Positions 30,528 through 41,751 of a stretch of DNA of 51,153 bases are shown here, piece by piece. Each line of letters starts with the position of its first letter. Position 1 is the stretch's first letter. A program made the translations under genes and the position numbers. The notes under the pieces are model-generated. The model ran no database searches, was not told the origin of the DNA, and was given only the letters and a program-made list of their open reading frames with translations. Source of the stretch: a virus (taxonomy: Duplodnaviria; Heunggongvirae; Uroviricota; Caudoviricetes); IMG/VR virus record IMGVR_UViG_637000105_000004. One strand, given 5' to 3'.

Positions 30528-30699
30528 CATTTCCTCTTTTAGTCTGTTATGACTGTCCTGGTACACAGTAGTGTCAATTATATGGAGCAAACGTATAAAA
30601 GATAAGATGAAACATCGCAATAATCAACATACGACGGTCTAAATTTCACACAAACAGATAAAGATGATTATCATTTATTATCAATGCATTAGAATCAAA

Positions 30700-33899: not shown

Positions 33900-34117
33900 A
33901 TCCTCACCCCGATGTACACAGATGGTGCAATATGTTTGAAAAGATCGGAGTCTATGGGTTAGTTTTTATAGCAAACGTTGTTCTCAACGGCGCTAAAAAA
34001 CAGACACATTAAAAATGTGGGTAATTATTTTAAAAGAAAATCATATATTAAATAATAATACGAGATATGTTTTCATATTTAGTGTACTGTATACGGCCAT
34101 TTATACAGGAAAAGCCT

Positions 34118-35795: not shown

Positions 35796-36548
35796 TTATC
35801 TCGTCACTTTTCTTAATTGCACCTCAGCATATGCTTCTTCCTGCCAGCACTTTGTAACCAGTTTATCAATGACATCTGCATATCCTTTGTACCACTGATA
35901 ATCAGTCAGGTCTGGTACCAGCTTCTGGACATGACACCGCGCCAGTGTCGTTGGTAAACGACTAAACCGGTTTCCATTGCAACGCCCACAAATCTTATAA
36001 ACAGGCGCGCCATGAAGCCGGGTCCTTTTTTCATCCAGGACAATACCTTTACCCTTACACCCTCTGCACGCTGTGCTGACTTCTCCCTTACCATGACAAT
36101 GCTGACATAGTTCCTTCACCCACTCTTCCTTGATAACAGACTCCCCGCTTCTGGAGTATTTCACCACTTCGCGCAATACATTATGAAATCCAGTACCAGC
36201 ACAAGGCTCACAGCGAGCCTTACTTGCCGCAGACCTGGAATAATCAGCAAAGGCAAAACTCACAAGGTAAGGGATGATCTGTAACCGGATTTCTTCACTC
36301 AATTTGTTCAATGTCGGGTTATCCAGTGCCATCGCGTAATTGAGCAGACCTTCAATCGCAAACTGAGGATCCTGAACGCCAGCTTTTGCCAGGAATAAGG
36401 CAAACCCAAGCGGTGCTTTCGACTGCACCATCCCCTGCGCAGCCATCACATCCGTAATCGTTAAACCACCTGAGCCTGTCGCCGGTGCGGCATCACTCAA
36501 TTTTGGAGATTTTGGGGAGTAATATTTTGGTAAGGCTTCAAGGTTCAT
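35796..36548 (-). CDS. Q: Late gene antiterminator Q (about 250 aa)
   Basis: From MNLEALPKYYSPKSPKLSD with GGAGAA Shine-Dalgarno; Cys-rich zinc-binding region (CEPCAGTG, CQHCHGKG, CRGCKGKG); position upstream of lysis genes. Confidence 0.8.
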   Translation of the reverse strand: MNLEALPKYYSPKSPKLSDAAPATGSGGLTITDVMAAQGMVQSKAPLGFALFLAKAGVQDPQFAIEGLLNYAMALDNPTLNKLSEEIRLQIIPYLVSFAFADYSRSAASKARCEPCAGTGFHNVLREVVKYSRSGESVIKEEWVKELCQHCHGKGEVSTACRGCKGKGIVLDEKRTRLHGAPVYKICGRCNGNRFSRLPTTLARCHVQKLVPDLTDYQWYKGYADVIDKLVTKCWQEEAYAEVQLRKVTR

Positions 36549-36561
36549 GCTCGTTCTCCAC

Positions 36562-37557
36562 TTACGCCAGTACGCCAATTGCCAGCGCACGATCGATAAA
36601 ACGAAATATCAGCTCCAGTTGGGAGCCATACTTCTCTTCAAATGTCACGGTATCCGCATGCAGCTCGTCGTGATGCTTTCTGCACAAAGGCAACACAAAG
36701 AGATCATGCGCTTTTGTACCCATTCCACCCTGACCGTGGCCTATCAGGTGGTGGGGATCATCAGCTGGCTTTCCACAACATGCGCACGGCTGCGTCTTAA
36801 CCCAGCGCGTGTACTTTTCATTAACCCAGCGGCGACGTTTGGGGCGTAACATAAAAGACTCCGGCGACTCCGGATCCACTTTCAGCGCCAGCACCTTTTT
36901 CGCTTTATCCTGGATGATGCTGGTGGCAGGAACCGAAGGCACAAGGTCACTTTCCCGGGTGACAGATGGCACAACAGGCTTCGGTAATCTCAGTGCCTTA
37001 CGGGCTGCACTTTCCGGTAAGGCATCCGCCAAATCATTACGAACCAGCCACCAGCACAGTTCCGGCATTGTCACAACGTGACTGTCATCAAAACCGAGAT
37101 CCCGACGCACGACAGACAACACCCAGCGGGCACAGTTATCCGTTGCCATTGATTCCAGCCGTTCCGTGAACTGGTCACGCAGCTGGTTATCGCAGTGCCA
37201 GCACAGACGAATTGCTCCCGGAGCGTGCCGCATTGTGGTCATGTTCTCGCTGTGCCAGTCGGAATGAGGCCACTGACAGCCCTTTTCACGAAGTAACCAG
37301 CTTTCAAGACATTCCACGCCACCAGCACGACGGATCACTGCCTCATTGCGGAACACGGCCCGAACGGCAGGATCATCCGCCAGCGGTTGTGATGCCGCCG
37401 GAACGGCACCACTGGCGAAAGATGAATAACGTTCCGGCTCAGGCTCCAGCAGGACACGCCCCTGCATAAACAGGGGCATCAGCTCTGAACCTGGCCTGAA
37501 CAATACAATCCCCATACGCGGGGCAATTTCAGGGGTCAGTAGTGCTCTCACGGTCAC
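36562..37557 (-). CDS. DUF968 / YdfU-like protein (331 aa)
   Basis: Cys/His-rich C-terminus (CACCGKPADDPHHLIGHGQGGMGTKAHD, CRKHHDELH); resembles Qin YdfU from memory. Confidence 0.7.
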   Translation of the reverse strand: MTVRALLTPEIAPRMGIVLFRPGSELMPLFMQGRVLLEPEPERYSSFASGAVPAASQPLADDPAVRAVFRNEAVIRRAGGVECLESWLLREKGCQWPHSDWHSENMTTMRHAPGAIRLCWHCDNQLRDQFTERLESMATDNCARWVLSVVRRDLGFDDSHVVTMPELCWWLVRNDLADALPESAARKALRLPKPVVPSVTRESDLVPSVPATSIIQDKAKKVLALKVDPESPESFMLRPKRRRWVNEKYTRWVKTQPCACCGKPADDPHHLIGHGQGGMGTKAHDLFVLPLCRKHHDELHADTVTFEEKYGSQLELIFRFIDRALAIGVLA

Positions 37558-37558
37558 C

Positions 37559-38356
37559 TCAATGAACGGTATCGAGCAGCTTTAACAGCTCAGGGAATCG
37601 GGATTCGAAGAAATGCGGCTGCGTCTCGCGCGGATTTGCGGGACTGGTGATGTTCTTGCCGAACATGCAACCTTTCGCTGTCAGCGACCAGAATTTTTTG
37701 ATGTTGTTAATCGCGGTACGGCTGTATCGTTCGCGCTGCTCGACGATCCCCAGTTTCACCATCTGGTGATATGCCTGATTAACCGTCAGGCGGATACCAT
37801 ACTGTTTCAGCAGTGCACTCAGTGACAGTGTCGGGCGACTTGAGCCATCGTGTGCATCAGCAGGAGCATCAATGGCATAGCGCGGTGCCAGATTCGGTAA
37901 GCCAACAGCCTCCTGGAGTTTCTGACAGGCACCAAGCACTGATGAGTTAGACAGGTTTAATTCCCGGCGCATAAAGTCCAGCAGGATCACGCCAGCCTGC
38001 ATCTTGTCAGCAGCCTGCCCGGATAATTTTTCCGGTGTGCTGGTTACCATATCGAAAGTACGGATCACCTTCAGATGGAATGACGGGCTGATCCACATTG
38101 CATAGGCATACACCAGTTCTTTGCAGACATACGTCCCCTGGTTATTTCCGCCACGAATAACGTTAACTGGCTCTATATTGACCGAGTTGCAAATCTGCAA
38201 CTCGCTTATTAAACGTTCAGTTTGCTCATTGCGGAGCCAGAATGCAGGCTTATGCTTATCCAGAGAACCGGCAGCCCTGTGCAGATCGTTCAGGCTGTAA
38301 CGCCCATAAGCATCACGACGAACTTCAATACCATCAATAACCATCAGATTATTCAT
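37559..38356 (-). CDS. KilA-N domain protein (265 aa)
   Basis: N-terminus MNNLMVIDGIEVRRDAYGRYSLNDLHRAAG typical of KilA-N. Confidence 0.75.
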   Translation of the reverse strand: MNNLMVIDGIEVRRDAYGRYSLNDLHRAAGSLDKHKPAFWLRNEQTERLISELQICNSVNIEPVNVIRGGNNQGTYVCKELVYAYAMWISPSFHLKVIRTFDMVTSTPEKLSGQAADKMQAGVILLDFMRRELNLSNSSVLGACQKLQEAVGLPNLAPRYAIDAPADAHDGSSRPTLSLSALLKQYGIRLTVNQAYHQMVKLGIVEQRERYSRTAINNIKKFWSLTAKGCMFGKNITSPANPRETQPHFFESRFPELLKLLDTVH

Positions 38357-38375
38357 ACTTCGTTTCTCCTCTTAA

Positions 38376-38765
38376 TCAGGCGGCTGCACCCGCCGGTTTC
38401 TCATACTTACTGATAGTGATCTCGACCTTCCCTTCCGGGATAACCGGTCCCCACTCCACCAGCATTCTTTTCACCTGACTGTCGTCTTCCCACACACCCA
38501 CGTGGGTCAGGGCGTCAAACAGCGCCTTGTTATAGTTGTCCAGATCGCGGATCCGGTTATCCGGAGGAAACAACACGATCTCCACTGAAGCAGGTGCCGA
38601 CGTTGGTTTCGGCAGACGACGTAACTGCTCAACTATTGCTGCGCACGCCGCGCTCTGGAATTTTCGCCCCGCCGCGCTTATCAGGCTCTTACCAGCAAAC
38701 GCCCCTTTGTTAGGGTGTCGCCAGTACGTGTTCACGCTGGGCGGAAAAGGCAGGATCAGCTTCAT
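38376..38765 (-). CDS. rusA: Holliday junction resolvase RusA (129 aa)
   Basis: MKLILPFPPSVNTYWRH...DLDNYNKALFDALTHVGVWEDDSQV RusA motifs. Confidence 0.9.
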   Translation of the reverse strand: MKLILPFPPSVNTYWRHPNKGAFAGKSLISAAGRKFQSAACAAIVEQLRRLPKPTSAPASVEIVLFPPDNRIRDLDNYNKALFDALTHVGVWEDDSQVKRMLVEWGPVIPEGKVEITISKYEKPAGAAA

Positions 38766-39088
38766 ACTTTCAGGCCCCTCTCATGTAACCAGTGGGCTGC
38801 ACGCAGCCTGGCGTTTTCCTCACCGGCAAGCAGTGCGCAGATAATCCCGACCGCCTCGCTGTCGTCGTCCTTCACAGCGGTATGAAGCGTTATCCCCCGT
38901 GCCACGCCACGCTTTATCGTGATGACGCCTTTTTTCTCCAGTGCGCGAAGATGCTCCACCGCTGCATTCACCGAACGGTATCCCAGCATGGTTGCCACCT
39001 CCTGATTGGTTGGCGGGAAGCCACGTTCTTTCTGGTAAGAAATCAGCATATCCAGCACCTGCTGCTGGCATTGAGTTAACGTCGTCAT
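38762..39088 (-). CDS. LexA N-terminal DNA-binding-domain-like protein (108 aa) lacking a peptidase domain
   Basis: MTTLTQCQQQVLDMLISYQKERGFPPTNQEVATMLGYRSVNAAVEHLRALEKKGVITIKRGVARGITL aligns with the LexA winged HTH; start overlaps upstream stop (TAATG). Confidence 0.7.
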   Translation of the reverse strand: MTTLTQCQQQVLDMLISYQKERGFPPTNQEVATMLGYRSVNAAVEHLRALEKKGVITIKRGVARGITLHTAVKDDDSEAVGIICALLAGEENARLRAAHWLHERGLKV

Positions 39089-39582
39089 TAAGCCCCCACG
39101 TAATTCCCTGACAGATACCACTCTTCACCCGATACAGCGCGCTTGCTGCTTTTCCGTAAACACCGCTCACGACGCGCAAGAAAATTGTTTCGCTCTTGCT
39201 GGGAGTGGCTTTCACGGAATGCCGCCATCCACACCGTTGCAGCACGACGGTATAAGCCCCTGGACTCCAGTTCTTCCGCCTGGCGGGTCAGGCACAAAAT
39301 CACCCGGGGATCGTTAGTGCCGACATAGAAATTGCGCACAGGTCTGGATTCACGAACTGGTTGCGGTTCCGGCTCCTGCGGTATCTCAGTCAGCCGCGGG
39401 AAATGTCTGCGTGTATCCCCTTCACAACGGTGAGCCACACGCCCACTCTGACGTAACTTGCTTGCTGACTGCAGAACGCGCTGTCGTGAGTAACCTGCAA
39501 AAGCATCCGCAATGTCTCCGGAAGTACACCCCGGATGGGCTTCAATGAATTTCTGAACGTCATTCAAAAGACTCATGATCAC
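39088..39582 (-). CDS. Hypothetical regulatory-type protein (164 aa)
   Basis: ORF translationally coupled to neighbours; basic C-terminus; no confident family. Confidence 0.55.
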   Translation of the reverse strand: MIMSLLNDVQKFIEAHPGCTSGDIADAFAGYSRQRVLQSASKLRQSGRVAHRCEGDTRRHFPRLTEIPQEPEPQPVRESRPVRNFYVGTNDPRVILCLTRQAEELESRGLYRRAATVWMAAFRESHSQQERNNFLARRERCLRKSSKRAVSGEEWYLSGNYVGA

Positions 39583-40520
39583 CCCCTGAATCCTGCCGGG
39601 ATCTGGCTGTAGTCCACATTGTCGTAACTGGCTTTGAAGTACGGGTCTTCGCGTTTTTCTGTGTACGTGCTGACGGACGGCGATAAGCGCAGGGAAAGCT
39701 CATCCCATTTTTCCCGCAGCTTCGACGGGCTGAGCACGTTACGGCACCAGAACGGATCGCGGCTGACGCGGCTGTACATCTCGCAGATTTGTTTGTGAGT
39801 ACGACCATCCTGCACACACATCAGGCGAATTTCGTTTGCCCAGGCTGTCCAGTTCGGTTCTTTGGGACGAACCACCTCGCCGTCACATTCGGCAGCCTGC
39901 TCGTACAGGGCGATGATTTTTTTCCAGAGCCACTGTGCGCAGGTCAAATCATCCTGCGTCCCCCACTGGCGTTTTTTAGGGCTGAATACAACCGCATCAG
40001 GATGGCGAGTTAAAAAATCCTGTTCAGCCGTCTGCGTGTCCGGTTGCGAAGAGTCCGGACGAGAAGGTTTTTTATCTGACGGATCATGTTTTGATTTTAC
40101 TGACGGATCCCCGCCAGATTCTGACGGGTGAAAACCCGCTTTTTTGCCAGATTTCGACGCATCAAATTTTGACGGGTCAGATTTTGATGCGTCAGATTTT
40201 GACGGGTCAGAATCTGACAGTTGAGAAAATGCCGCTGCCTGAAGCTTCGCAACGTTAAGCTGATAAACATTCGACGCATTGCGGTTACCCTGGCGACGCG
40301 CCTTACGCGTTAACCAGCCTTCTGCTTCCAGCCGTGCGATAGCCGTTCTGACGGTACTCATCCCCGCGCCAATCTGGCGTGCAATGGTTTCAATCGATGG
40401 CCAGCACACACCTTCGTCATTACTGAAATCAGCCAGGCGGGCCATAATTGCCACGCTGGATAATTTCATGCCTGACGCTGCGCAACCATCCCATACATAG
40501 CCGGTTAATTTAGTGCTCAT
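39579..40520 (-). CDS. Replication initiator (O-like, HTH N-terminal domain) containing ori iterons in its coding sequence (313 aa)
   Basis: N-terminal HTH (SIETIARQIGAGMSTVRTAIARLEAEGWL); internal SDPSKSDASKSDPSKFDASKS repeat encoded by DNA iterons. Confidence 0.7.
   Translation of the reverse strand: MSTKLTGYVWDGCAASGMKLSSVAIMARLADFSNDEGVCWPSIETIARQIGAGMSTVRTAIARLEAEGWLTRKARRQGNRNASNVYQLNVAKLQAAAFSQLSDSDPSKSDASKSDPSKFDASKSGKKAGFHPSESGGDPSVKSKHDPSDKKPSRPDSSQPDTQTAEQDFLTRHPDAVVFSPKKRQWGTQDDLTCAQWLWKKIIALYEQAAECDGEVVRPKEPNWTAWANEIRLMCVQDGRTHKQICEMYSRVSRDPFWCRNVLSPSKLREKWDELSLRLSPSVSTYTEKREDPYFKASYDNVDYSQIPAGFRG
40091..40220. repeat. Tandem ~15-16-bp iterons (putative replication origin)
   Basis: Six or more copies of CAGATTTTGACGGGT-like units in tandem inside the initiator gene. 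Confidence 0.75.
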
Positions 40521-41654: not shown

Positions 41655-41751
41655 ACGCCCTCCAAACTAAGTTTTGTTAGATGCTAATTACAAATCTATC
41701 TTTGGTCAATAAAAACTAAGATTACTTAGCAATTAAAGAAATGGTGCTCCT
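41655..41751. promoter_or_regulatory. Immunity-region operator/promoter (OR-like) between cro-like and repressor genes
   Basis: 97-bp divergent intergenic region with repeated AACTAAG / CTAAG-N4-CTTAG / TTAG-N3-CTAA dyads. Confidence 0.65.

Follow-up and report, generated by a model that had tools for sequence, protein, structure and literature searches.

The N-terminal fragment released by LexA autocleavage in Escherichia coli shows 10-1000-fold weaker binding, yet its degradation by ClpXP is needed for full SOS induction (PMC11442139). In engineered constructs, fusion to an unrelated oligomerising module turns LexA(1-87) into a repressor of a LexA-type operator upon dimerisation (PMC8222386), and the Bacillus tectivirus GIL01 encodes a truncated LexA homologue, gp6, which recognizes its own palindrome and activates the late promoter P3 (PMC6182141). 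A gene of comparable design is found in the IMG/VR virus record IMGVR_UViG_637000105_000004, a stretch of 51,153 nts (hereafter the window) which is 100% identical to the chromosome of E. coli CFT073 and holds a lambdoid prophage inserted between ssrA and glaH. This gene (38762..39088, minus strand; 108 codons and a stop, WP_000210150.1) encodes a LexA-type DNA-binding domain (DBD) followed by a short tail and is referred to below as the LexA-DBD gene. We tentatively propose, with a confidence that stays short of an even chance, that its product is a RecA-proof, delayed-early and probably tail-dimerised binder of SOS-type CTGT operators, which would keep or restore repression after the loss of LexA.

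The likeness of the 108-amino acid (aa) protein to the winged helix-turn-helix at the LexA N-terminus, proposed earlier in a sequence-only reading, was borne out. The Pfam domain LexA_DNA_bind (PF01726) matches over profile positions 1-65 of 65 with an E-value of 3e-19 and 69 bits against a cut-off of 23.7, and the E. coli LexA chains in the PDB match with E-values of 6e-16 to 3e-15, the HMMER alignment running along LexA residues 2-70. By these scores, the likeness is far past chance. An AlphaFold model built from a 20-sequence family alignment (mean pLDDT 84) places the winged helix-turn-helix in codons 1-69 (38882..39088, minus strand; pLDDT 78-88), with predicted helices at residues 6-22, 28-35 and 40-52 and strands at 56-58 and 66-68. 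Foldseek superposes this model on 3jso/3jsp, chains of LexA-DNA complexes, and on 1lea, determined by NMR, with an rmsd of 1.0-1.3 Å over 67-70 residues (48-51% identity). The winged helix is thus shared with E. coli LexA (1lea, 1jhh, 3jso; 44-51% identity, 1.0-1.3 Å), while the phage protein differs in being encoded in an early lytic operon of a phage, in carrying a private hairpin instead of the C-terminal domain and in the replacement of Glu44. As far as sequence and predicted fold can tell, the 108-aa protein is a sequence-specific DNA-binding protein.

LexA contacts DNA through Ser39, Asn41, Ala42, Glu44 and Glu45 (PMC3091678, PMC13416735), and Arg52 and Lys53 are also important (PMC4807011). 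The recognition helix of the phage protein, SVNAAVEHLRALEK (codons 39-52, 38933..38974, minus strand), keeps four of these five contact residues (S39, N41, A42 and E45) and has a valine at the place of Glu44. Outside the five contacts, K53 and R64-G65 of the wing are identical to LexA, and LexA Arg52 is replaced by lysine. Glu44 is found in 28 of 30 LexA matches bearing an S24 domain. Conservation of the contact residues, named in the sequence-only reading as a point to verify, hence holds at four positions and fails at the fifth, where Glu44 is replaced in every family member. Among 26 distinct protein alleles, residues 34-53 show no amino-acid variation at all. It can safely be stated that, in these alignments, the family retains most of the predicted CTGT-reading surface, with the systematic loss of one acidic contact. 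That the protein may occupy SOS boxes, as suggested earlier, is plausible.

Downstream from a low-confidence linker (residues 71-74), the AlphaFold model predicts a C-terminal two-helix hairpin (codons 75-103, 38780..38866, minus strand; helices 75-88 and 93-103, pLDDT ~90). This hairpin is conserved across genera, in relatives down to 41% identity. The hydrophobic residues V79, I82, I83, L86 and L87 are spaced i, i+3/4, i+7, and A97 and L101 are invariant. The hairpin is proposed to be a dimerisation module, which would most likely make the 108-aa protein a dimer. A tail-only profile searched against the PDB gave no sequence match and, in a Foldseek search with the whole model, the winged helix was matched alone, full-length matches to BlaI/MarR/MntR-type repressors being poor (rmsd 4-13 Å). 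The further suggestion that the protein could heterodimerise with LexA is unsupported, as LexA dimerises via its C-terminal domain (PMC11442139), which is absent here.

The LexA autocleavage fragment (residues 1-84), which retains some operator binding and acts as a repressor until ClpXP removes it (PMC11442139), covers about the same part of LexA as the head of the phage protein, which in contrast is genetically encoded, lacks the ...VAA end and has 39 extra residues that may restore dimerisation. This ...VAA C-terminus of the LexA fragment is reportedly a ClpX signal, an observation attributed to Neher et al. 2003. The engineered LexA(1-87) fusions (i.e., two-hybrid and optogenetic repressors) have the same architecture but are artificial, whereas the module proposed for dimerisation in the 108-aa protein is a natural hairpin of 30 residues. 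Because of these two precedents, the cleavage fragment and the fusions, a repressor consisting of the DBD without the protease domain is credible.

The lack of the S24 autocleavage domain was confirmed. The protein ends at residue 108, the DBD is the only domain matched in Pfam, and no Peptidase_S24 match, which would cover the S24 peptidase/dimerisation domain with its Ser119/Lys156 pair, was obtained. The NCBIfam lexA equivalog TIGR00498 scores 71.5 bits, below its cut-off of 110.95, with profile positions 1-91 of 203 matched. In E. coli-type copies, an 'AG' at residues 88-89 aligns with the Ala84-Gly85 cleavage site of LexA. A residual site cleavable in trans ('LLAGEE') was considered and rejected, since distant members read MVERES, LLTRKE, MIDDQP or LLACSV at this position and the AG lies at the end of a predicted helix. 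With no S24 domain, a TIGR00498 score under the cut-off, no conserved cleavage site and no LexA C-terminal domain, the protein would be insensitive to RecA*, in agreement with the idea that RecA could not inactivate it. The similarity to LexA reaches residue 90-91 in the HMMER and TIGR00498 alignments, which suggests that the gene originates from a lexA truncated just past the cleavage region, the remainder having been remodelled.

GIL01 gp6 resembles the 108-aa protein in being phage-encoded and in having PF01726 without a protease domain, and it is made early in the lytic cycle. However, gp6 contains only 66 aa, has no tail and belongs to another virus group infecting another host phylum. 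It binds a palindrome quite unlike that of LexA, and in its helix 3 (SHKTAHRY) four of the five contact positions carry other residues than in LexA, compared to one of five in the 108-aa protein. A BLASTP comparison of the two proteins gave no alignment at E<=100, which points to independent captures. Phage-encoded truncated LexA homologues thus have a characterised example in gp6, and the enterobacterial family is an independent capture equipped with an extra tail.

Public phage genomes already carry annotations for this family. The PHROG family phrog_362 ('transcriptional repressor') matches the whole protein (E=2.4e-58, residues 1-108 on profile positions 1-106 of 106), and near-identical genes were retrieved from 51 phage records in a DNA search and from 60 in a protein search. 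Identity is 95-98% with the copies in SfV, SfII, SfIV, cdtI, mEp460 and the Stx2a/2c/2k converting phages. The product is described as 'unknown' in SfV (orf42), as 'LexA DNA binding domain protein' in SfII and mEp460, and elsewhere as 'LexA family transcriptional regulator'. The RefSeq coding sequence WP_000210150.1 is named 'LexA repressor', and some public names, such as 'SOS-response repressor and protease LexA' and 'RecA-mediated autopeptidases', are wrong. Within the family defined by phrog_362 and SfV orf42, the CFT073 copy differs only by Cys84 (codon 84, 38837-38839), a position of the first tail helix that is an arginine in most other copies. A 1.4-kb query centred on the gene matches 2702 of 5426 complete E. 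coli genomes, with at least 80% of the query covered in 2164 of them, and intact 108-aa copies form clusters of 2527, 782 and 374 members. An exhaustive HMMER search identified full-length relatives, tail included, at 41-51% identity in Atlantibacter, Kosakonia and Buttiauxella genomes and in coliphage mEp390. A scan of genome contigs was dominated by true lexA genes and yielded new members from Atlantibacter, Kosakonia and Buttiauxella only. Ten proteins (P0130, P0131, P0147, P0150, P0151, P0154, P0157, P0159, P0162 and P0164) carry two tandem LexA DNA-binding domains, as pseudo-dimers; the three sequences that were read (P0130, P0131 and P0154) have no S24 domain.

Across 42 distinct DNA alleles, the pN/pS ratio is 0.11 and no internal stop occurs; the LexA-DBD gene is therefore functional and under strong purifying selection. 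The amino-acid variation is concentrated in residues 70-106. A decaying, functionless remnant of a captured lexA would account for the truncation just past the cleavage-site region and for an alignment that stops at residue 90-91. This explanation is effectively refuted by the selection, by the conservation of the tail to 41% identity across genera and of the gene order, and by the large clusters of intact copies, so that we give it almost no credit.

On the minus strand, the ATG of the LexA-DBD gene is at 39088..39086 and its TGA at 38764..38762. The translational coupling noticed earlier was found as described: the plus strand reads CATTA at 39086-39090, i.e., TAATG on the coding strand, so that one base belongs both to the ATG and to the TAA (39090..39088) that ends yfdN, the PerC-family gene upstream. 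A run of GGGGG resembling a Shine-Dalgarno sequence (39097..39093) lies 4 nts 5′ of this ATG. At its other end, the gene overlaps rusA in an ATGA stop/start (38762..38765, minus strand). Both neighbours are on the minus strand, yfdN at 39088-39582 (Pfam PerC, E=9e-10) and rusA at 38376-38765 (Pfam RusA, E=1.7e-14). No overlapping Rfam family and no credible antisense open reading frame (ORF) were found for the LexA-DBD gene. PerC-family proteins such as that encoded by yfdN are related to activators of the LEE virulence island, and some carriers of the LexA-DBD gene have yfdN while others do not.

The operon context runs from an O-like replication gene to the antiterminator Q (35796..40520, minus strand; Pfam, PHROG and RefSeq), the order on the minus strand being cro, ymfL, a DUF4222 gene, the O-like replication gene, yfdN, the LexA-DBD gene, RusA, KilA-N, DUF968/HNH and Q. 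The gene thus sits between the replication gene and Q, which agrees with the nin-type position given in the sequence-only reading. In the relatives at 41-51% identity, the gene is followed by RusA, then ANT or KilA-N, DUF968 and Q, while the 5′ neighbour varies: in mEp390 and several relatives it is the replication gene itself, in others PerC or up to two methylases (Dam). Two types of Q occur. In locus L007, the replication module is of the DUF1376 plus lambda-P type instead of the HTH_36/Phg_2220_C type found in some carriers, and the gene is still ahead of RusA-DUF968-Q. Because this neighbourhood is kept despite differing upstream and replication genes, the LexA-DBD gene is part of the nin cassette and not of the replication module, and a role as a replication accessory replacing lambda P was rejected on the same grounds. 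In L002 and L007, RusA does not adjoin the gene, and L010 has no RusA; conversely, RusA occurs without the gene in HK97 and in L118, L127 and L159. The gene is dispensable, as these three loci, among 80 with an SfII-type cI, keep RusA without it.

A consensus scan found no promoter-like site directly upstream of the LexA-DBD gene. The sole suitably placed one is a candidate early rightward promoter, TTGACC-17-TAGCAT, upstream of cro (41681..41709, minus strand), from which we infer delayed-early expression from pR.

Assembled, these elements suggest the following course of events. Like the other products of the delayed-early pR transcript, the protein would appear once infection or induction has begun, and would not be made while the lysogen is quiescent. 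Its tail hairpin would dimerise the LexA-type head, and the dimer would bind CTGT-type inverted repeats, both in host SOS operators and in the canonical boxes which many phages of this group have in their genomes. RecA* would be unable to inactivate it, so that these operators would stay repressed once host LexA has been destroyed; in a stable form, the 108-aa protein would thereby mimic the function of the N-terminal fragment left by LexA cleavage. The gene moves as a nin cassette with variable neighbours and no constantly linked non-coding stretch, which would fit a target that is available in any phage mosaic. Within this scheme, the fold, the missing protease domain, the conservation, the synteny, the purifying selection and the four retained contact residues are shown, and we infer that the tail dimerises, when the gene is expressed, which operators and DNA sequences are recognized, and that the effect is repression.

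SOS boxes were scored with a position weight matrix (PWM) for which 17 E. coli SOS boxes served as the input. The scan and the annotation of the window identified tandem canonical boxes 28 bp apart, one of 19.5 bits (2380-2399) and one of 13.0 bits (2408-2427), located 5′ of a frameshifted dinI-like gene (2441-2688) near the ssrA end. The same arrangement precedes an intact dinI in mEp460 and cdtI, and the two boxes of the window are possible targets of the 108-aa protein. In five carrier genomes, ACTGT-N8-ACAGT is the most enriched palindrome that is not a terminator, with 7 distinct sites against 0.2 expected, and none occurs in lambda, HK97 or P22. In 80 IMG/VR loci centred on the gene (1.31 Mb), 43 boxes score at least 20 bits, compared to 3 in 80 lambda-type ninB loci (1.23 Mb), all without the LexA-DBD gene; E-values and enrichments obtained from IMG/VR loci are inflated by near-duplicate prophages.

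The boxes of the carriers fall in characteristic places. A perfect canonical SOS box lies inside cI, in the linker codons between the helix-turn-helix and the S24 domain, in SfII (L094, 29167-29186; 26.3 bits), mEp460 (L095, 31970-31989) and L013 (837-854), and such a cI-linker box is found 3-4 kb 5′ of the LexA-DBD gene in 21 of 80 loci. On the coding strand, the SfII box matches the umuDC operator. The cI-internal box could be a roadblock or an internal SOS-controlled promoter. A second box, TACTGTAAAAATAAACAGTG (21.9 bits), is found in the late region, where it overlaps the start annotated for a DNA methyltransferase gene between Q and the holin gene, in mEp460 (L095, 41021-41040), SfV (L096, 34170-34189) and cdtI (L097, 44083-44102), and lies 4-5 kb 3′ of the LexA-DBD gene in 24 of 80 loci. 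In the distant relatives L007 (5560-5579) and L010 (~513-532), an SOS box heads the gene cluster itself, which comprises dinI (in L010), a 75-82-aa gene, the LexA-DBD gene, a 67-aa gene, RusA (absent in L010), DUF968 and Q; the arrangement suggests that in these two loci Q, and hence late expression, may be under direct SOS control.

Several observations weigh against SOS-type operators as the target. Position 44 is never Glu in the tail-bearing family, which has V, A, F, T, N or L instead, and helix 3 varies in distant members (e.g., SVNTIAGH, SPNAATDM and SSNAVLLH), including at positions 42, 43 and 45. The PWM scan of the window found no strong SOS box at the early or late control regions of the CFT073 prophage, and the only strong boxes of the window are 36 kb away from the gene, at the broken dinI-like gene. 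Of the 52 carrier loci that are fully covered, only 27 show a strong box between -5 and +6.5 kb. Three box types, found in closely related phages, underlie the enrichment, which makes the effective sample small. In addition, L118, L127 and L159 keep the box-bearing cI and RusA without the LexA-DBD gene; a strict dependence between the cI-internal box and the gene was therefore rejected. The association between boxes and gene is real but weak as evidence. Finally, the literature searches aimed at the LexA-DBD-plus-tail family found no experimental study of its function.

In the main rival explanation, the protein is a transcription factor specific to the phage, similar in type to GIL01 gp6. Its LexA-derived domain would have drifted to an operator of its own, in the phage or in the host, and it would activate or repress a particular promoter during lytic growth, without any action on the SOS regulon. 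We regard this as a serious contender, albeit on the unlikely side. Its precedent is gp6 itself, a DBD-only LexA homologue which has a palindromic binding site of its own and switches on a late promoter (PMC6182141). The universal loss of Glu44 and the variation of helix 3 among members from Enterobacterales hosts, which are assumed to share one LexA box, point the same way. The control regions of the CFT073 prophage without SOS boxes are also in its favour, as is a palindrome found in the window before ynfU. This palindrome, TACTGTATA-CGGCCATT-TATACAGGA (34086..34109), has two perfect LexA half-sites in a CTGT-N14-ACAG arrangement, 6 bp wider than the N8 spacing of the SOS box, and lies 9 nts 5′ of the ynfU start. 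As a candidate operator it is speculative, and as an operator of the family it was rejected: its region is common to 6 phage records only, the motif occurs in 1 of 80 gene-carrying loci, and other carriers do not share it. More generally, no candidate operator is consistently linked to the gene, the intergenic gaps of the conserved RusA-DUF968-Q block being ~10-110 nts, and the unbiased palindrome search in the five carrier genomes gave terminators, A/T runs and the canonical SOS box, with nothing else convincing. The reading head of the 108-aa protein is also much nearer to that of LexA than is that of gp6.

The translational coupling to rusA in the window, the position directly after the replication gene in mEp390 and several relatives, and conserved neighbours that act on DNA would fit a DNA-binding accessory of the adjacent recombination and replication functions (i.e., RusA, DUF968/HNH and the O-like initiator) rather than a transcription factor. 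Nevertheless, the replication module differs between carriers (HTH_36/Phg_2220_C, or DUF1376 plus lambda-P type in L007), RusA and the gene are found apart or one without the other in the loci named above, and the fold is that of an operator-reading repressor, which makes such an accessory role improbable. Still less probable, to the point of being barely credible, is a LexA antagonist that, binding weakly or with another spacing, would compete with LexA at phage SOS boxes, or sequester a host factor with its tail, and so turn on LexA-controlled genes. Nothing specific supports it, beyond the boxes that some carriers have in cI and at the methylase start, where LexA might hinder the phage. An occupant of the same operator would normally repress as well, and the sequence suggests no surface for binding LexA or RecA. 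A component of anti-phage defence was also considered and rejected, PADLOC having returned only a marginal CARF match of 18 bits.

Compared to these alternatives, the binder of SOS-type operators remains the reading that we tentatively prefer. A more ambitious version of it is distinctly doubtful: a RecA-proof LexA mimic, carried by about half of the complete E. coli genomes and by Stx2a/2c phages, would re-occupy SOS-type operators after induction, shut down the host SOS response, silence LexA-controlled rivals (i.e., colicins and the antirepressors of other prophages) and act on the boxes of its own phage, including the perfect cI linker box of the SfII/mEp460 type, thereby making induction irreversible and setting its timing.

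Other palindromes and repeats were recorded during the scans. The CI operators of the window are of the CTAAG-N-CTTAG type. At 30551-30570, ~20 nts 5′ of the gnsB start, GACTGTCCTGGTACACAGTA has perfect ACTGT...ACAGT arms around a G+C-rich spacer and a PWM score of 8.6 bits. Inside the O-like replication gene (40113-40226), six iterons in a 15-bp register contain short palindromes like GTCAGAWTYTGAC and encode the repetitive SDPSKSDASKSD stretch of the O-like protein. They are presumably the phage origin, and their half-sites have an orientation opposite to that of the SOS box. In lambda (L098), the best LexA-like site, TACTGGATCTATCAACAGGA (38660-38679, 15.5 bits), falls between cII and O, close to oop. 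Of the 80 lambda-type ninB loci, 29 have this site as well, and close variants occur in HK97 and 3 further loci.

Given how frequent the gene is in prophages of pathogenic E. coli, the value of the proposal lies in this frequency and in a hypothesis that is easily testable. If the protein has a private operator, the family would represent a second, independently evolved conversion by a phage of a captured LexA head into a private regulator. DinI, PsiB and GIL01 gp7 act via RecA or LexA cleavage. If instead SOS-type operators are bound, the LexA-DBD protein would be a tool, widespread among phages, that acts from the DNA side to override the response of the host to DNA damage, and this would bear on SOS-driven mutagenesis, on how prophages compete in polylysogens and on when Shiga-toxin phages are induced.

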